Shown: one piece after another, positions 553-64,000 of the stretch
Position numbering within the stretch: the stretch's first letter is position 1
Layout: every line of letters begins with the position of its first letter
Source: Hypanus sabinus
Taxonomy: Eukaryota
Length of the DNA stretch: 64,000 nt
Reading direction: 5' to 3'
Assembly: GCF_030144855.1 (NCBI RefSeq)
Contig: NC_082709.1
Coordinates: forward strand, 24,056,001 to 24,120,000
Made by a program: the position numbers and the translations under genes
The notes under the pieces: generated by a model
Told to the model about the DNA's origin: nothing
The model's database searches: none
What the model saw: only the letters and a program-made list of their open reading frames with translations

Positions 553-1534
553 CGTTATAGTATATTACAGCCAAGGCCAGAGGTCTGTAATTCTTACTCC
601 CTTTAAACATTAAATTCAATGGAAAATTTATTGTACTACGATGTAAAATGCATTTGGAAATAAATAAAAGTAAAATCCAAATTCAGGAAAACCAGGTGGT
701 GGGATTATTGGAATTTTATTTTATTTTTACTGATGTTCAGTTCCACTCCAACAATGTGGCACCTCACCTCAAAATTGCAGCAAGGTACTAAGACAATGAC
801 ACCGCCTTGTTTGAAACTTGTCTGCACTGAGATAGTATTTTTTTTAAAAGACTTTTAGTATTCAGCTTGCGTGCCTCTTTAGGCAAATGGAAGATGAGGA
901 CAACTCTTGGTGGGCATTTGAATTTGTGGAGGATGTTCCACAGTCCCTCCCAATTAATAGAATTATTTTCAGTTTAAGATGGTGCTGGTGAAATACAGTG
1001 ACAGCTAGCTGGCAGCAAACAAAACTACTAACTACTCTATTGGTCACATCTTTTCTGGTAACAATCACTGCAATCAATAGCCTGTAACTTCCCTTTCAGT
1101 GTTAAACTTTTGAACTGCCTGTACAACCAGGCATTTTTATGCTGTGAACTGAAGCCTCAAAGATGCAGGATGGTTGCAGAGTTAGGGCTAAAGCAGGCAA
1201 AGGAGCACAGGCCCAGGAGCGGGCAACGGGATAATGAATAGTCATTGCTGGAGCAGACTTGAAGCTGATTCAAATTGGCAGAACTGAAGCAAGGCAGATT
1301 CGAAGTGGCAGGGCCTAGGTCTGAGAGCAAGGAACAAGCCAATTTTTGACCTACTTATGCACTAGGCCAGATTGAAAAGGTCAGAAACGTGCTAAATCGA
1401 GGCAGTGGATCCCAGGTCCAAGAGCTTTTCAAAGCACTTTTTCTTGAAATTATCACAGTATGTGCCTCCATATAATGTTCAATTTCAAACTACTCTGTAA
1501 AAAAAAATTTCCTTACAGTTTGCAGAATTAATTA

Positions 1535-1990
1535 ATAAAATTGTTTCCTTGGATACATAAGCAGAGGTACAGAGTATTAAAAGAAAGAAGTCAGACTGAA
1601 CATTTACAAAGTAAGTACTGAATGGGTTTCTGCTAAAGTTATGTATCAAATTCTAGGTACTGCATTTTACAAAATGTGTCAGTATCTTCTAGAAGCCGTA
1701 GCAAATATTTCCTACAATTATACCATTGTTGAAGATCTTCGGTGATATTGGATGAATAGAAAAACTTTAATGGTTGTTCTAAATAATAGAATGAAGGTCT
1801 TCAAACTCACAATAAATACAAAATACATCCACTGGCTAAAGGATCAGTGACTAGGGGACTCAGATTTATCGTCAACCTCAATTCAGCAACAGATTTTTTT
1901 TCAATTTTCTTCTGGTTGTTGCAGTAAAAATACTGTTTAAAATTGATGGAAGCAGATCCAATGGAAATTCACCCAAGGAACTGAATATAT
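1535..1990 (+). mobile_element. Old, heavily decayed CR1 LINE 3' fragment
   Basis: ATAAGCAGAGGTACAGAGTATTAAAAGAAAGAAGTC resembles the CR1 ORF2 'ISRGIEYKSKEV' segment. Confidence 0.4.
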
Positions 1991-1994
1991 AAAG

Positions 1995-2710
1995 GACTGA
2001 AGGATGAATACAAGGTCCTGGTGCAAGCTGAATCATTTGCAGCTCAACATCAGTAAGACAAAGGAGATGGTGATGGACTTCAGGAAGACTAAGCCTGTAC
2101 TACTCCCTGTTACTACTGATGGTGAGGCTATTATTGTGGTGTGGACCTGGATGACAGACTTGAGTGGAGCACCAGAGGCTTTACACAAGAAGGGCCAGAG
2201 TCATCTCTACTTCCAGAGGAGACTGAGGTCCTTTGGAGTATGCAGGCCTCTCCTTCACATGTTCTACCAGTCTGTTATGCAGTGGTGTGCTGGGACAACA
2301 GCATCAACACAAGAGACACCAACAGGCTCAATAAATAGATTGGAAAGTCTGGCTCCGTTATAGCAGTCAAATGGACACAACTGGAGGCTATGATAAAATG
2401 AAGAACTCTATGGAAAATCCTGACAATTCTAGACTATGTTTCTCACCCTCTGCATGCCACCTTGGCTGAACAGAGGAGCACTTTTCGTGACTAAGACAAC
2501 TGCACTGCTCCGAAGAGTGCTATATGAGGTCATTCTTACTCTCAGCCATTAGGCTCTATAATGAGTCAACCTATAGCCCCTACTGTTGACTGTTCAAGAT
2601 AACTTATTTTTTATTCTTTCTTACTTCTCTTCTATTTGTATATCTGTGCACTTGTAATGCTACTGTGACACTGTAATTTCCTTTGGGTTCAATAAAGTAC
2701 CTATCTACCT
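1995..2710 (+). mobile_element. Rex1/Babar-type LINE 3' fragment
   Basis: ORF 2004-2363 WCKLNHLQLNISKTKEMVMDFRK is the typical post-RT motif; ends in AATAAAGTACCTATCTACCT tail. Confidence 0.8.
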
Positions 2711-2730
2711 ACTGTATATACTTCTAATTA

Positions 2731-3005
2731 AGGGTGGCACAGTAGCATAGTTGTTAGCACAATGCTTTACAGTACAGACGACCTGGGATCAATTCCCAAC
2801 GCTGCCTGTAAGAGGCTGTACATTCTCCCCATGATGGCATGGGTTTCCTCTGGGTGTTCCGGTTTCCTCCGACAGTCCAAAGACGTACCGGGCGGTAAGT
2901 TAATTGGTCATTGTGAACTGACCTGCAATTAGACTGGAATTAAACTAGGGGATTGCTGGGCGGTGTGGCTCAAAGAGCCTAGTCCATGCTGTATCTAAGC
3001 AAACA
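2731..3005 (+). mobile_element. tRNA-derived V-SINE (HE1-like)
   Basis: tRNA-like head with A/B-box-like motifs (TGGCACAGTAGC; GGATCAATTCCC), V-domain core TTCTCCCCATGATGGCATGGGTTTCCTCTGGGTGTTCCGGTTTCCTCC; related copies at 28135 and 49420. Confidence 0.8.
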
Positions 3006-3715
3006 GACAAATAGATAGTTGGATAAAGGAATGGGTGAGCCCAAGTAAAGAGTAGAAAAATAGAGTTGTGCAATAAAACTCCAATAATCCAGACTATTAG
3101 ATACAATTCCCTTAAATCTCCAAAAAACTTCAAATTTATTTTTTTATTTTAAGTAGTTAGGCAGTAAACTAAAATCTTCTTATAAACCCATTTAGTTTCA
3201 AGGAAATGGCAGCAACTAGTACCTGGGTGTACAAGAGTGTTTGAGGGAAATGGCACCCAGATACATTGGGACCTGCGGAATGCCGGATTAGTGAAATGCC
3301 AAATAACAGAAGGATCACATTAAGCAATAGCTAACCACCTCATCATACCTTTAAAATATCATGCAAGTCAGTACAAGTTAGATAATAATGAACCAGAAAT
3401 ATTAAACAAGTAGCAAGTGAAATTTTGATAAAGTAATATACTGTACAGACACATAAAATAAAGGGTACAGATAAATGTACAGGAATTAACTTGTACAGAA
3501 CAGTTGAGCACTTCTGCTTCTAAAGTGAGACGTTTAGTAAACCTTCAGGCAAAGTTGCATGTTTGCAAGTGTGGGATTGTCAGGATCATCAACATCTTCA
3601 TCTTGAAAAATAAGTGAAGCATCAGGAACTGGTGCTGAAATTGGCACAACAGTTTCTTCAAAAACTGTTGATGTTGGTGGCAGCACATCTGGGTGAGCAG
3701 AAGAAGTCAAAGAAT

Positions 3716-3883
3716 GGAGGTCTTCTATATGCCACATTTCACGCGACCGCCAGGCAACCGAGGATTCAGTGCTGAGCTCTTCCCTCTTCACTTGCAGTTA
3801 CTGAGGAATCCTCGTTAGTTTCTTTTCCACCGCTTCGTTAAATGCTTAAATTCAGCGGGTTGGCCACGACTGATCTGAGGGTC
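3716..3883 (-). pseudogene. Dispersed 5' fragment (about 170 nt) of 28S rRNA
   Basis: Minus strand reads GACCCTCAGATCAGTCGTGGCCAACCCGCTGAATTTAAGCAT...GCGGTGGAAAAGAAACTAACGAGGATTCCTCAGTAACTGCAAGTGAAGAGGGAAGAGCTCAGCACTGAATCC, the conserved eukaryotic LSU 5' end with substitutions. Confidence 0.93.
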
Positions 3884-4040
3884 ATAGGCAGAAGAGAACG
3901 GAGCACCGACCAGACAACGCCGGAGGGCAGTGCATGACTGCCGGCAGGCGGGCGAGAAGGTGGACCGACCCAGTGCGCGCCAGCTCTCCCGCCGCTGGCG
4001 GATGAGACAGGCAGGTGCCGGGCAGCCGCAGCTCACGCAA
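3884..4040 (-). other. Probable ITS2 3' remnant adjoining the 28S fragment
   Basis: GC/CpG-rich block directly 5' of the 28S start on the same strand, where ITS2 lies in the rDNA unit; identity inferred from position and composition. Confidence 0.55.
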
Positions 4041-4260
4041 ATGATATTAATAAATGTAGGAAAACAAGCAGGAATCGCCTGTCTGTGCTTACAAGAGCGG
4101 GCCAACATGTGAACAGATCTAGCGCAACCAAAACAATGCGCAGCAGATTGGTACGGTGGCCCAGGAAATTTGACATTACAGCTGCGCGGAAAATTTGAAA
4201 TTAGTGCCGGATTATCGAAGGAACCAAATTACAGATAATCAGATTAGTGAAGGTCAACTG

Positions 4261-4716
4261 TACTATATTCTGCCATCATATTTGACCTACCAAAATGAAC
4301 CTCTCCACACTTATCTGGGTTGATCTCCATCTGCCACTTCTCAGCCCAGTTTTACATCCTAGAAGTGTCCTGCTGTAACCTCTGACAGCCCTCCACACTA
4401 TCCACAACACCCCGAACCTTTGTGCCATCAGCAAACTTACTAACCCATCCCTGCACTTCCTCATCCAGGTTATTTATAAAAATCACAAAGAGTAAGGGTC
4501 CCAGAACAGATCCCTGCGGCACACCACTAATCACCAACCTCCATACAGAATATGACCAGCCTACAACCACCCTTTGCCTTCTGTGGGCAAGCCATTTCTG
4601 GATCCACAAAGCAATGTCCCCTTGGATCCCATGCCTCCTTACCTTCTCAATAATCCTTGCAAGGGGTACCTTATCAAATGCCTTGCTGAAAACCATATAC
4701 ACTACATCTACCACTT
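4261..4716 (-). mobile_element. CR1 LINE reverse transcriptase fragment
   Basis: ORF 4352-4726: VDVVYMVFSKAFDKVP...SGVPQGSVLGPLLFVIFINNL...KFADGTK. Confidence 0.9.
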
Positions 4717-4724
4717 CCTTCATC

Positions 4725-5108
4725 AATGAGATACGCCTCTACCAAAGATCCAAGGCGCTCCTTCCCTCCATTGGCCTGCAAGTCACCCTCGAACAAGGTG
4801 TAGCACCTACCTAGCACCCCCCACACCCCCCCCCCGGACCAGATCACGCAAAGCCATGGCAGCAGGTGGTGGATGGTCATATGAACAGCTGGTGGATATC
4901 ACAAGTCCTGGTTATGCAACCACTGATGCCAAGCAGACAATCTCTGAAGAGTATTGATAATGACTGGGGCTACCCATCTTGTATAGGCACTGCTCCGAAG
5001 AAGGCGATGGCAAACCACTTCTATACAAAAATTTGCCAAGAACAATCATGGTCACGGATAGACCATGATCGCCTATGTTATTCAACACAGTGCTTAACGA
5101 TGATGATT
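4725..5108 (+). mobile_element. SINE-like repeat with RTE-type motif
   Basis: GAAGGCGATGGCAAACCACTTC resembles the motif of RTE/BovB-associated SINEs; ends in (TGA)n. Confidence 0.45.
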
Positions 5109-5291
5109 GTGTTATACAACTGCAATCAATAAACATTTTATAAAACTGAGTGCTTTGTCCTTTCTCGTCCACAAAAATTTTACAGTAACTTTTAATTGAG
5201 ACATTTAACTGGGAAAGTAAACCTTCCATAACAGGAAAGCCCAATAAACCTTGGTCATATATACTGGGTGTTTAAATACTTTTCCTATATA

Positions 5292-5824
5292 CAGCATTGT
5301 GCAAAAGTCTTAAACACAAATACATAGCTAGGGTGCCTAAGACTTTTGCACAGTACTGTAGTAACTTAAGTATTGTACTGTACTCCATGAAAAAAAAACA
5401 AATTTCATGACATGAGCGGTGATTAAATTTACTTCTGATACTAGTCCCTATTGTGGACTGAGAGTGGGAAGGAGGTAGGGAGACAGGAATTGTGGTTGGT
5501 AAAAGGGGAAGGGTGAGGGGAGAGAGCGGGAAGCACCAGAGAGACATTCTGTAACGATCAATAAACCAATTATTTGCTATCAAATTACCTTGCCTGCTGT
5601 CTCAAGGTTGGGTGAGTCTACACCCGTGCCAACCCCACCACTGGCACTTCTCTGCCACCAACCTGCCCTATACCCCTCCCACGGCAGCCCACCCTTGCCA
5701 TTCCCAACATCCTTTGCTAGATTTTCAAACTAGCTCTCCATTCCACATTAACAAACACAGTGCTTTGCAAAGGTCTTAGACATCCTAGCTATATATATGG
5801 GCCTAAAACTTCTGCACAGTACTG
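5292..5824. mobile_element. Composite Tc1/mariner-type element bounded by two inverted 67-bp hairpin MITEs
   Basis: 5292-5358 and 5758-5824 each match CAGTACTGTGCAAAAGTCTTAGGCAC-spacer-GTGCCTAAGACTTTTGCACAGTACTG; spacers are in opposite orientation; TA at 5290-5291 and 5825-5826. Confidence 0.75.
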
Positions 5825-7109
5825 TAGGTGCCAGCAATAACTCTGAAACACAAGCCTTTACTGAAAGACTTCTTAATGAGAACCAATTCATCATATTCAT
5901 CATTTGATATCATACAGAATCAATGACTGAACAGAACTCTACCTGTTGTTTTCAGCACATTTTCTCAACAAACTCTTGAACTCAGAATGCGATAATACAA
6001 TATTCCTCACTTTACCACGCTCTTAGTCCATTTTTCTCAGTAATTTATTGCCTTCCAAGCCTTTATTTGTGATTTTTCAATTTTCAAATTCAATATTCTA
6101 TTGGGTTAGGTAACATTGCTCACATGAGCAAATTGCTTATTCTCCAAAGTTCACTTTTAAGAACACAAGACAGAGGATTGGAACATATCTGTGATCAAAT
6201 CATTGGCCTCGTTCACTTAACTGTTTTATTCCCTCAATTCCCCTTACATTCTAAACTCAATGTTAGCCTTAGATATACAATGAATATTTCTCTCAATAAT
6301 CTCAAGTCATATATGTTTCTTCAGAAATGCTTTGTTTCTAAATTTGAGTGTAATTCAGGCTGACAGACTAATAAAGAGAGCATTGCACAGTTATAGGTAC
6401 TGTCTTTCTGAAGGATATCAAAACAAGGCACATATCAAACAATTCCAAAAGTCTCAATACCAACATATAATTCTCAAGTAGCAAAACTGATAAGATTATC
6501 TGATAATTTATTCCCTCACCTTGGACAATCTGATTATTCTGTTTCTGTGTTACAACAGTTATCGATTTCTAATCTACCTAATTAACGGAAATGCACTGTC
6601 ATCTGCAGATCTGTCAACTACAATATGCAGTAAAACTTCTCCCCATTTAGCCTCTCATATGTTGACTTCAATTCAACATGTAATTTATATACAATTCCTT
6701 TTGTTCATCTCTTCCCATTCCTACAATTTCCTCTAGTCCAAATTGATATATACTGTGTGACCAACCCAGTAATGTTTATTACCAAGTCCATCGATATTTA
6801 CCTCAAGATTGCTATCTTTTGCCAAATCTACAATACCTTCAAACTTCTGTTACTTCAGAACTTCACTTTTTTTTAAAAAAAAGCTTTGAACATCCATAGG
6901 TCTGTGCCTCCAACCTGTTTAACTGCAGACCATTTGTTAACCAAAACACAGCAGATTGTTTTTTTTTAAATGTTAAAAAGCATTTTAAAAAATGATCTTC
7001 TCCAACAAGAGAGAGTCTAACCATCCACCTTCGGCACTCACTGTGACACACAGTGAATCACAGTGACACAGCACTGAACTCCAACACCCTGAGCTCCCAC
7101 ATTGACATG

Positions 7110-14189: not shown

Positions 14190-15020
14190 CAGTGACTACC
14201 CAGCGAATACGGACCAGGACCAGGACCACTTCAAGCCAAGGCCAGAGTCCGCAGCCCTGGAAACGGAGATCACCGGAGAGAGGAGCCGCGTCTGTGGTCG
14301 GTCACTCACCCGCTGTCCCGCATCACGCTGCTGTCCCCGCAATCGCAGGCCCCGCCCGCTTGACTCCGAAACATGTTGAAATCGTGGCCCGTGTGCTCCC
14401 CGGCGTTGAAACACTCGGCGCACAAGGACATGCACGGCGAGATCCCGCACGTCCGACACCGGTACGCCACGAAGTTGGCCGTCCACACCAAACCGCACAG
14501 GGTGGCGTTGTCATAGGCGCGCACCATTTTACAGAAGTCATCGAAGCTCTCGCCGCCGGCCATCAGGCACTTGCACCACTCGATCACTTCGGCCTCGGCC
14601 ACCGGCCTCTTGGGGCTCAACACACTGTCCAGCAGCTCACCGAGCAACTGGGCTCCTTTACCGTCCGACCGAGAGCACTCAGCCTTCAGCGAAGCAGCCA
14701 CACTCCGCTTGTCCCGGCGTAGCAACGGCACCGCCATGACGGCCGCCCCCCACCCCTCCCCCCTGGCTGGCTGATCCCTGACTTATTTTGTTCTTTGACC
14801 AGCGTCGCGCCCGCTCTCGCGAGATCCCGCGCCGCGCCGCGCCGCGCCGCCTCCGTTCCCGACTCGGCCCGGCCGCCGCCGTTTGAAGAGGCGTGATGGT
14901 GCGTGAGGTTCTGCAGATCCTGCACACCTGCCCTCCAAATAATTCCTCTCGCTCCAGGCCCCCTGAGTTTCTCCAGCGTTTTCTTTGAAGCGCCTGCTGC
15001 ATATCCTACGGCGGTGAACC
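14190..15020 (-). promoter_or_regulatory. CpG island / UBR3 promoter and 5' UTR
   Basis: High CpG density in an otherwise CpG-depleted window; perfect TCTCGCGAGA palindrome 14815-14824; (CCGCG)n run 14827-14850. Confidence 0.8.
14310..14737 (-). CDS. UBR3: E3 ubiquitin ligase UBR3, first coding exon (UBR-box zinc finger); rest of the gene lies to the left, no further exon recognised in the window
   Basis: LCGLVWTANFVAYRCRTCGISPCMSLCAECF..GEHTGHDFNMFRSQAGGACDCGD is the UBR3 UBR box; good Kozak GCCGTCATGG; donor GG|GTGAGT at 14309. Confidence 0.97.
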
Positions 15021-33584: not shown

Positions 33585-33968
<384 letters not shown>

Positions 33969-34961
33969 TGAAGATGAGTTAAGCTTTTGAGTTTCTGAGT
34001 TGCAACTTAGAACCAGATACTCAGGCACTTCACAGGTTGCACTATAAGAAAATCATTTGATTACCTCAGAATAACACATGTATCATATGGTTTCATTGTT
34101 AATTATTGTTGTTGCTTATTATGCAAACAATTTCAGGCACTTTAAACAAATGAAAATCTGGAGGAACCAGATCTGCAAACAATTTCCAAATCCATTTTTA
34201 TCAGTAAATTTCAATTGCATGGCAATTAACAATGGCAGAAGCAAGAAATAAAGCCTCATAATAAATCTGTATTCTCCCTTCGAGTTCAGAGCTCAAATTC
34301 AAATCCATATTAGAATTATGTACCCAGCAAGAATCCTCAGTAAAACATTACAAAAGCAAAATAATCCAGACACTAGAAATCTAAATCACAAAATATTGAG
34401 AATTCTTGGAGGCAACGGCAGCATCTGTGCAGAGATGAACAGTTCACATAAACTACTCTCACCACAAGTATATTATCTGTTGTTTCCACCATCTTGTATC
34501 TTTTTTTCCAAATTTTTTTAGGGTGATAATGCAATACTGGTTCAAAGAAAGAGTAGTAAAGTTTTGTCACTCTCATTAAGATAGCCAAACTTTGATAAGG
34601 ACATTTAGTTGCAAGTACACATCAGGTTCTATATGTTACTGAAATCTAAATATGAATTTTAAAATTATGCAAAAATACTTGCATTTTACATTAACTTCTG
34701 TAATCTCTGGAAGCCTTAAGTACACATGATGTGTACCCACTCTGGTAATGGAGGGAAAGGTGGCTGACAGTCTGTGCAAGATCCCACGGACATGAAATAA
34801 CCAAGTTTTAAAATAATACTACATACATTGATCAGAGCGTCAGTCCCCAGAGTTTCTTTAAACAGTGACACTACAATGATTGGGAAAATGGGGTTTCAGT
34901 TTAATTAAACATCCACCAATTCAGAGTCCATCGTCATTGCATTGAAATATCAAACTATATA

Positions 34962-60097: not shown

Positions 60098-60414
60098 TTA
60101 GGCTTGTATATCATATACACTTACACAGCCATGTGAACGCATGGGACCAGGCAAATTCCCTATTATTTCCCAAGTATCTTTCTCGGGATCATATTTTTCA
60201 ATACTCTGCAGATAACTTCCCTTAGAATATGAGTATCCACCTGTAACATAAATGCAGCCATTCATCACCAATGCACCACATTCCATTCGTCTTTCATTCA
60301 TTTGGGTTATCTGTTTCCATTCATTCTTTTCTATGTCGTAACAATCAGTGATAGTTGTCTGTCCACCAACAAAGTAGATCTTGTTATATAAACCCACGGA
60401 GCACAGCCCATACT
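60098..60414 (-). CDS. KLHL23: Kelch-like protein 23, last coding exon (final Kelch repeats)
   Basis: EYGLCSVGLYNKIYFVGGQTTITDCYD...ERRMECGALVMNGCIYVTGGYSYSKGSYLQSIEKYDP...MRSHGCVSVY; TTTTTCTCTTCTAG acceptor; expected syntenic position next to SSB. Confidence 0.95.
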
Positions 60415-61334
60415 CTAGAAGAGAAAAATAGAACAACTGAATTATAAATATTCTTATAATAAGAACTGCATACATTCACTATTTCAACTTCTTTCCTGAC
60501 TCACAGTTCCTAAATTAAGGTCCTAAAATTTGCTGTTATTATATTTTAAAAAAAGCAATTCCAACATAGCCATTTTCATTTGTTTTCTCTACTGCAAACT
60601 TCATGAAGAGAAATTTAAGGTATTTCAGAAGTATTCAGTAAGAGTCTATAATTAACATTACACTGGTTGTAACTGTCTCTACCTTCTCATAACACTGCAC
60701 TAAAACTTCACGCAAAATCACTTCCCACTGTAATTTGAGTATAGTGTTTTGCTCAGCACTACTATTAAAACAGTGGACAAAGGGCACTACTTTCAAAGAA
60801 TGAAGTTCTCTGTGCAGGTAGTAGAATCAATTTCAATACACGTGAGCAAAATGTAGAAAACTGGAGAACACATTACAGGTATTTCTTAAGTAAGAGTGCA
60901 ATCAGTTACTTATTCCTGAACTCTTCCCCCACCCCAGAGTACTCCACATTACCATAAATCTAACCATATTATTTTCTTCAATTCTTCATGAATGCTTTTG
61001 AGCCTCGACTTTCTGTGAAACTAAACATTTTCCCATTCCTAATGTTCCAATTGCCTGTGGCTTCGCCTCTCTGGATTATTTCTAATGCTTCTGCTTCAGA
61101 CATTAGAATTTTCAGTCTCTTGCTGTAATTTGTCCTCACTGTTTTGAGTTCAGTGAATCCATGCCCAATGAAACATTGCTCATGGGATCTCTGGAACTCT
61201 TGAATCACTTCTAGTATGCAACACATTACTCTCTCAAAGGACCCAGCTCCATCTATTTGATTCAAGCCATTCAGTAAACAGAGAAATTCTGTAAACATAA
61301 TCCTTATGTAGTCATTACAGAAGCAGGGGCAATA

Positions 61335-62279: not shown

Positions 62280-62569
62280 CTTGTAGAATAAGTACTAGTA
62301 TGGATGTATAAAACAGTTTTGCATGTTCATTGCAGTACATATTAATAAAATTATAAATTACAATAAGTAGATATAAAAATACATTAAATAAATAGTGCAA
62401 AATGAGAGAGGGAAAACACTGAGGAAGTGTTCGTGGATTCAGCGTCCATTCCGAAATCTGATGGCAGAGGGAAAGAAACTGTTCTTGAAATATCAAGTGA
62501 GTGACTTTAGGCTCCTGTACTTCCTCCTTGATGGTAGCTATGAGAAGAGGGAATGTCCTGGGTGATTGG
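62280..62569 (-). mobile_element. Rex1/Babar LINE 3' tail interrupted by the LTR element
   Basis: GTCCATTCCGAAATCTGATGGCAGAGGG is the reverse complement of the tail at 20775-20800. Confidence 0.7.
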
Positions 62570-62767
62570 TGTTGTGTATTTAATATTTCAATAATATTTG
62601 AGTAATATTGAATATATATTGATTGCTTAAGCATTCTTGTTCATTTAAATAATTCATTACAGGTTATATGTCATCACTAAAAGTGGAGAACAAAATAAAA
62701 CTTACATTACTGGTTCTGTTCTTTTCCTTTGAATTAGTTTAATGGTTCAAAGCTACAAAACATAACA
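62570..62767 (+). mobile_element. 5' LTR (198 bp) of a Gypsy-type retrotransposon, followed by a primer binding site
   Basis: TGTTGTG...CATAACA inverted termini, internal AATAAA at 62694, PBS-like TGACGATGAGG at 62769-62779. Confidence 0.8.
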
Positions 62768-62992
62768 GTGACGATGAGGTATTTTTAAAATGAAGCTGGG
62801 ACAGCTACCGACCTATTGAAATGCAGTGAGACATTTGAGCTAATGAAAAAGCACAGAAAGGAACAGCGTGTAGAAAACAGTGCAACAGATGCAGAGACAG
62901 TCGAGTTAACAAAAAGGTAGAAACAGAAGAATTCATAGATTCATAAGTAGTGAGTACCGGGTAATAATAAACATAAATTAAAAAGAGTAGAA

Positions 62993-63294
62993 ATGGCTGG
63001 CTGTATTGACATGTTCAATTGCTCAATAGGTAACTGGCTCATTTATACTAAGCTAACTGAACATTACTTTGAATCAAGTAAAACAGCCAGTGAGAAACAA
63101 GTACCAATTTTGCTGAGTGCATTGGTTTTAAAGGCATACAATTGCTTCAAAGTTTATCTGCTCCAACCAAACCAGCTGAAATGAGCCTTGCTGATATTGT
63201 GAAAGTAATTCAGGAATATGTAGAACCAAAACCATTGTTGGTTGCAGAATGCTTCAGGTTTCATAAGCAGAATCAAAAGGAAGAGGAGTCCATT
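62993..63294 (+). pseudogene. Gypsy gag N-terminal remnant (frameshifted)
   Basis: MAGCIDMFNCSIGNWLIYTKLTEHYFE...KQVPILLSAL then MSLADIVKVIQEYVEPKPLLVAECFRFHKQNQKEEESI, matching the gag motif P..I.ERF.F..R.Q..GES. Confidence 0.8.
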
Positions 63295-63782
63295 TGGCTT
63301 TTATGAGTATAAAGAACCATAATCTACAATGTATGCATGATATTAAGGTTATTGCATGAGGTTCAAGTGGGAGACAAAAAACTGCTTGTAAAAGTAGATG
63401 CAAAGACAAAAACCAAGCTGGATGAATGGACGGCCAAAAAGAAAGAAGTCAATGGAGATTTAAAAACAGAGGAGTCATCAGATGATGTTGTGGATGAAGA
63501 AACTAGCAGGAGAGATCAGATCGTAGGAGTAATAGAAGGATTAACAGTTCACTCTAGTGAACTATATGCCCCTACCTAAGATCAAGATGCACATCCTAGA
63601 AAGAAGGAAGGCAAGAAAAAGAAAGATAAGAAGTTGAAAAGATAGAGAGAAAGAACATGAGTGTGGAAGAAGGAATGTGGGAAAGAAAACATGGGATAAA
63701 AAGAGAGAAAAAGCTGAGACAAGGAGAGAAGCAACAATCTAAGTAGATCCAGAGTGAAAAGCCGTGAAAAGGAAAAGAAACG
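63291..63782 (+). pseudogene. RBM25: Processed RBM25 fragment (RRM C-terminal half to RE/RD-rich region) inside the LTR element
   Basis: FGFYEYKEP*STMYA..LRLLHEVQVGDKKLLVKVDAKTKTKLDEWTAKKK...DEETSRRDQIV..IEGL..HSSELYAPT*DQDAHPRKK versus RBM25 FGFCEYKEPESTLRALRLLHDLQIGEKKLLVKVDAKTKAQLDEWKAKKK...DEETKRRDQMIKGAIEVLIREYSSELNAPSQESDSHPRKK; contains stops and frameshifts. Confidence 0.9.
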
Positions 63783-63969
63783 CTTCCAGGGCTATCAGAA
63801 CCAGTTCCTGCAGTATCAGCATCAACTCCTGCAACCACCACAGAGGAGATCCAAACCTGAGATTGTTTCACAGCCACATGTCTCACCTGCCAAGCAGAGT
63901 GATCCTCCTTGTCAGGAAAGATATTATCCCACAAGAGTAAGACATCCTCCAGAACGATTAAGTCTTTAG
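63783..63969 (+). pseudogene. Gypsy pol C-terminal tail remnant
   Basis: P/S/T-rich linker ending ERYYPTRVRHPPERLSL-stop, the R-Y-P-x-R-x-R-x-P-P-x-R-L ending typical of these pol proteins. Confidence 0.75.
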
Positions 63970-64000
63970 GCCTGAATAGGACAAATTAAAATTTACTATG

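Follow-up and report, generated by a model that had tools for sequence, protein, structure and literature searches.

A decayed Gypsy LTR retrotransposon copy from a non-autonomous family carrying spliced RBM25 sequence, and its probable origin by template switching

We describe here an LTR retrotransposon that begins within the window (the whole 64,000-nucleotide stretch of DNA analyzed) and that is very probably a decayed member of a non-autonomous Gypsy family in which spliced RBM25 sequence replaces reverse transcriptase (RT), RNase H, and integrase; the family likely stems from a single capture by two template switches, likely followed by copying in trans by RT-bearing relatives. Double template switching with a spliced host mRNA had been proposed in an earlier sequence-only reading, and it is supported by the spliced state of the RBM25 piece, by breakpoints shared among copies, and by common words at both junctions, to which we add the many dispersed copies with target duplications and the relatives that carry RT and match the hybrids in LTR, gag, and protease. 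The RBM25 piece is most likely a passenger, and the process is the already known one of LTR-mediated retroposition, of which only the scale is unusual here.

The element occupies positions 62570 to 64981 of the forward (+) strand, to which all of its features given below refer, so that its 3' part lies beyond the window end at 64000 (extended coordinates continue the window numbering past 64000), and it has two LTRs, a primer-binding site (PBS), a polypurine tract (PPT), and a target duplication of 5 bp in which one position differs. The 5' LTR (62570–62767) has the 198-nt length, TG...CA ends, and AATAAA (at 62694) originally described, although the 7-bp inverted ends claimed for it (TGTTGTG...CATAACA) match at only 6 of 7 positions. 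The PBS, TGACGATGAGG (62769–62779), is an 11-mer with the stated two mismatches from the word proposed earlier; we presume its primer to be tRNA-Ser(GCT), following that assignment, and no tRNA gene was found within the 64-kb window. The broken 5' third of gag, from a single-ORF Gypsy element (K02A2.6-like), starts at an ATG at 62993 and extends to 63290, with ~99 codons where about 100 had been read. It abuts a 5-nt word, CATTT (63291–63295), at which comparison with full-length family copies places a private deletion of ~1.2 kb. The spliced RBM25 fragment of 490 nt (63291–63780), identified by protein matches, begins at the first base of exon 6 (exon numbers are our own) and ends with the 3' capture junction word (63771–63780), which exon 10 of RBM25 shares with the pol tail and which carries one change in the window copy relative to the form in relatives. 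A pol C-terminal tail, recognized by comparison with relatives as lying downstream of integrase (63781–63969), is followed by a 3' untranslated stretch that starts at 63970–64000 and continues to the PPT (extended 64073–64086) and the 3' LTR (extended 64087–64981). The sense orientation of the RBM25-like stretch, the switch back into the pol end, the loss of protease, RT, RNase H, and integrase, and the out-of-frame arrangement of gag and RBM25 in this copy were all read correctly at the outset, as was the expectation of a PPT and 3' LTR past 64000 and of a target duplication, for which ATTGG at 62565–62569 and ATGGG at extended 64982–64986 match at 4 of 5 positions. The 3' LTR is interrupted by a later insertion of ~650 nt (extended 64275–64925), a repeat unrelated to the element and present at many other loci.

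The hallmarks of Gypsy/Ty3 elements (TG...CA LTRs, PBS, PPT, and a 4-6-bp target duplication) are thus present, and they recur in the family. The family LTR is ~245 nt long (236-248), with the window 5' LTR ~50 nt shorter. The two window LTRs show 24 differences over 145 aligned bases, and the LTR pairs of five other copies in which both ends were found are 16-20% divergent, with target duplications matching at 5, 5, 4, 4, and 3 of 5 positions. With 5' and 3' LTR ends pooled, 16 of the 58 scored precede a word with three or fewer mismatches from the originally proposed PBS word.

RBM25 sequence is readily recognized in the insert, for which 139 proteins match at E<=0.001; all informative names among the 120 listed are RBM25 or RRM proteins, the best listed match has 80% identity, and the reading frame at 63313-63576 matches RBM25 proteins. 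The nearest protein match points to a cartilaginous fish as the source of the genome, of whose contig C18 the window is part. The host RBM25 gene, on contig C16, has GT-AG introns and includes a C-terminal part absent from the element. Exon-exon joins predicted in the insert were confirmed against its exon map and splice sites: the window copy joins exons 6 and 7 (63456/63457) and exons 9 and 10 (63752/63753), which in the host gene lie 3.3 kb and 1.1 kb apart, and a family-type deletion takes out exon 8 and leaves parts of exon 9. Fuller family copies join exon 3, a 48-nt exon, and exons 4, 5, 6, 7, 8, 9, and 10 without introns, such that the captured piece is a 1.07-kb segment internal to the mRNA, from the end of exon 3 to early exon 10. 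The 48-nt exon is in frame (contig C16 113706119-113706166), is present in 87 of 116 copies and skipped in none, and was part of the captured transcript; among the 120 listed RBM25-like proteins its peptide occurs in one, from sevengill shark, and in none of the others. Pfam searches of the six window frames yielded nothing useful, PDB and Rfam searches gave no match, and a genome-wide search with the Pfam PWI domain recovered other PWI genes and not RBM25.

Full-length family copies contain gag with its zinc knuckle, protease, and then ~290 nt more RBM25 than the window copy, and among the sampled loci 63/116 cover more than 800 nt of gag-protease and 14/116 none. The proposal that the gag-pol core had been replaced thus holds for RT, RNase H, and integrase, but gag, zinc knuckle, and protease are kept. 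The 5' switch lies at a 7-nt word, TGCCACA, common to the RT-bearing relatives and the end of host RBM25 exon 3: RT-type relatives match the hybrids up to this word and then proceed towards RT, and the hybrids proceed as RBM25. Of 30 RT-type relatives, 26 could be aligned here, and 15 of these have the word unchanged; RBM25 starts at mRNA position 160-170 in 82 of the 116 distinct copies, earlier in 1 and later in 33. The 3' switch lies at a 9-10-nt word, GAGAAGAAA, common to RBM25 exon 10 and integrase-end relatives, 10 of 20 of which carry it unaltered. Two breakpoints picked at random have 7 or 9 letters in common with frequencies of 7e-4 and 8e-5, the second of which is an underestimate because the 3' word is of low complexity and the words lie in decayed copies. 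Pol does not resume at its departure point, with ~2.6 kb gone. The sequence features of LTR-mediated retrocopies that were examined are all present here, namely an intronless mRNA piece between two element halves, common words of 7 and 9-10 nt, no poly(A) or separate target duplication around the host piece, and shared breakpoints.

The 5' join is in codon phase with gag-protease, although not with the gag N-terminus: the net offset is zero in 36 of 60 copies (p 2e-5 against one third), with 15/60 and 9/60 off by one, either way, and six copies read open across the junction. The commonest codon is never a stop in 297 gag-protease and 205 RBM25 columns. At the 3' junction, RBM25 and the pol tail are in different frames.

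A search of the 4.04-Gb genome with a 500-nt insert query gave 2,465 first-look candidates; 116 distinct copies were analyzed, 11 duplicate or near-duplicate loci having been set aside. Exact matches to a 17-nt word across an exon join number 169 (control 2), and for the 5' junction word there are 217 in its hybrid form, at least one of these in an RT-type copy, and 502 in its RT-type form (controls 0), by which count hybrids would make up about 30% of the Gypsy family copies retaining the junction region. With the exon-join and junction words intact in 6/47 and 9/116 sampled copies, respectively, extrapolation from the exact-word counts gives ~1,300 (650-3,500) and ~2,800 (1,500-6,000) copies, figures that lean low because the samples were chosen by similarity; we thus estimate the hybrid family at about one to three thousand copies (roughly 1,300-2,800). 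The suggestion that this is an amplified non-autonomous family is supported by these many dispersed copies sharing breakpoints, with target duplications.

A fish polyprotein segment used as query recovered the RT-bearing relatives, which have their LTR, gag, and protease in common with the hybrids. The closest proteins include K02A2.6-like polyproteins of 1,150-1,320 aa with RT, RNase H, and integrase, to which the genomic relatives are colinear, and the parent lineage has the order protease-RT-RNase H-integrase. No intact helper was found among 14 RT-type relatives read at length, all of which are fragmented, many without part of integrase. Several RT-bearing relatives lack part of integrase, with breakpoints that look similar in some copies, and the RT-bearing side of the family may include further non-autonomous subfamilies without host sequence.

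One deletion running from exon 7 to exon 9 is common to 48 of the 116 copies (29 continue in exon 7, and 39 are ambiguous or without anchor), and the hybrid itself was therefore re-copied. The deletions of the shorter subfamilies are located in the purine-rich RBM25 part. No diagnostic substitutions were found for them (0 columns at p<1e-4), so some common deletions could be recurrent, and a candidate two-base mark in exon 7 turned out to be the edge of a deletion. Three very similar hybrid copies on contig C1 all have one 900-nt insertion in the RBM25 part, and we infer that they reflect segmental duplication rather than new transposition.

We propose that RBM25 mRNA was packaged together with element RNA, and that reverse transcriptase would have crossed to it at one common word and returned at the other, exchanging ~2.6 kb of RT-RNase H-integrase for 1.07 kb of host exons, a swap that likely occurred only once. 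The hybrid retained all cis signals (LTRs, PBS, and PPT) and a frame open from gag through protease into RBM25, and it multiplied in one old burst, likely copied in trans by enzymes of RT-bearing relatives and perhaps helped by its shorter length; shorter subfamilies arose by deletion in the purine-rich RBM25 part, the copies decayed neutrally, and the window copy later lost 1.2 kb between two CATTT words. Very similar junctions would be expected from recombination at the DNA level between element cDNA and RBM25 cDNA.

The copies are considerably decayed. Divergence from the commonest codon per column has a median of 11% (8-17%, 100 copies), and within 615 nt each copy has on average 2 stops and 4 frameshifts, only one in 100 copies having neither. 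The tree is star-like (terminal branches 10.7, internal 0.85). Of 294 gag-protease columns, 273 have one and the same commonest codon in hybrids and RT-type copies, which argues for one burst with a helper lineage alongside.

An alternative is that an in-frame Gag-protease-RBM25(RRM) product aided the element, whether in packaging, in export, or in the control of splicing, and was selected during the burst. In its favor, the in-frame capture retained the RRM (Pfam RRM_1, E 6e-8), hybrids reach the share of the family given above, the common deletions fall 3' of the RRM, and no common stops occur within it. However, the prior chance of an in-frame capture is one in three, only 1.3 common stops were to be expected, the deletion of the commonest subfamily shifts the RBM25 frame, and the deletions cluster in repetitive sequence. 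Moreover, variants present in at least 12% of copies are mostly transitions, and the amino-acid-changing share is equal among common and rare transitions (p 0.24 for gag-protease, 0.83 for the RRM, and 0.24 for the rest; 0.06, 0.82, and 0.08 with all changes pooled), in a test that has little power in a star-like family. There is therefore no evidence of selection on the fusion protein; an apparent deficit of amino-acid changes among common variants vanished with correct frames and with transitions counted apart, and the intact frame under purifying selection that marks a functional retrogene or transduced oncogene was not found. We consider a selected fusion very unlikely. It is very unlikely, too, that the in-frame RRM let an enzyme-less element out-compete others for helper particles and that the thousand-plus RBM25-derived insertions, some antisense in introns, came to supply, across the lineage, small or antisense RNA that acts on RBM25 as an essential splicing factor.

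Insertion of a LINE-made RBM25 retrocopy into a Gypsy copy, with both sides trimmed by deletions before the hybrid was amplified, is very unlikely. LINE fragments are abundant around hybrid loci and deletions at short common words are frequent in the family, but the piece is internal, from the end of exon 3 to the start of exon 10, and thus lacks the mRNA 3' end at which LINE copying starts. In agreement with the initial description, it has no intron, and neither poly(A) nor a target duplication of its own was found at the junctions examined; both ends fall on common words, and two further deletions would be needed.

The sequence-only reading had placed RBM25 directly against gag and taken CATTT as the capture junction defining the family, a version that is hardly credible because, in spite of the 5-nt common word and the coincidence of the join with an exon's first base, an additional 1.2 kb separates these words in other copies and the join was found in no other family copy. 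In two full-length copies the words lie 1172 and 1201 nt apart, and missing from the window copy are the rest of gag, the protease, the 5' capture junction, and the first 290 nt of the captured RBM25. Only the window copy spans a 201-nt CATTT junction query among 40 scored matches (one apparent exception is plain gag), none of 12 other matches in a pattern search for the join is a family copy, and no bridging contig piece occurs among 32 listed of about 130,000 pieces. The join falls exactly on the first base of RBM25 exon 6, which we take as coincidence; splicing was considered as its origin and rejected, since the gag sequence left in this copy is not followed by a GT donor. A later deletion of ~1.2 kb at a 5-nt word, found in the window copy only, accounts for the CATTT join.

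At sites where host and sevengill shark RBM25 differ, the copies have the host state at 6 and the shark state at 2, and these few sites suggest that capture followed the split from the sevengill shark lineage. Contigs 96-98% identical to the window copy are present in sequencing runs of three organisms (one possibly the same species), some of them spanning the 3' junction, and paralogues are ~75-82% identical; the window insertion therefore predates the divergence of those organisms. Dating with the mutation rate given for the epaulette shark in PMC10587355, 7e-10 per generation, yields an impossible ~1e8 generations, and we give no age in years.

Acutely transforming retroviruses have host exons fused in frame behind gag, have lost replication genes, and need a helper, and in classic oncogene transduction the 5' join usually results from read-through with splicing or from a deletion. 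The hybrid family is similar in its in-frame host exons behind gag sequences, lost replication genes, and need of a helper, but differs in that no envelope was seen, and there is no infection and no sign of advantage from the host part; the likeness to oncogene transduction originally drawn thus fits in mechanism, but not in selection on the captured frame, of which none was found. LTR-mediated retrocopies are a known class in animals, and those described by Tan et al. 2016 (PMC5131818) likewise have partial spliced mRNA in sense orientation between discontinuous halves of an LTR element, short common words at switch points, and further rounds of retroposition. Maize Bs1, as summarized there, is an LTR element with host exons from three donor genes, one to five copies, and a reported protein product; the hybrid family resembles it in having host exons within an LTR element and the same switch points in all copies, and differs in having one donor, thousands of copies, and being known from sequence alone. 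Crocodilian ERVs captured KIT-ligand and nectin3 mRNA, with nine intact KIT-ligand frames under purifying selection (PMC4299795). Both they and the hybrids are vertebrate LTR lineages that multiplied carrying captured host mRNA, but the ERVs are of the retroviral class, and the hybrid family is Gypsy, with decayed frames and no selection found.

The hybrid copy number is far above the few copies of these cases as described in the accounts consulted. The family is an unusually clear vertebrate fossil of LTR-mediated capture, in that a single genome still contains the donor gene, the parent element, and the two switch words, and the copies preserve an old RBM25 transcript with the 48-nt exon. 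We found no literature on this RBM25-carrying family and, judged by the titles and abstracts listed, no closer case of the mechanism; most subscription journals and the repeat libraries Dfam and Repbase were outside the search, so a library entry is possible. More than a thousand RBM25-like fragments spell trouble for gene annotation and read mapping, and the insertions could serve as phylogenetic markers.

The window copy sits within a BTB-BACK-kelch gene, in an intron and antisense to the gene, as had been noted, between a large exon (extended 69941-71224) and the last exon (60098-60475, − strand). We presume this gene to be KLHL23 from its synteny with UBR3 and METTL5, probably represented here by a UBR-box gene exon (14306-14782, − strand) and a methyltransferase gene exon (33585-33971, + strand). 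A frame at 3815-4228 apparently overlaps what we take to be an rRNA-like fragment. A second, independent hybrid copy, at contig C18:24132280, lies in the same orientation ~12 kb past the window end, just upstream of the large exon of the kelch gene; its RBM25 part is 76% identical to that of the window copy.
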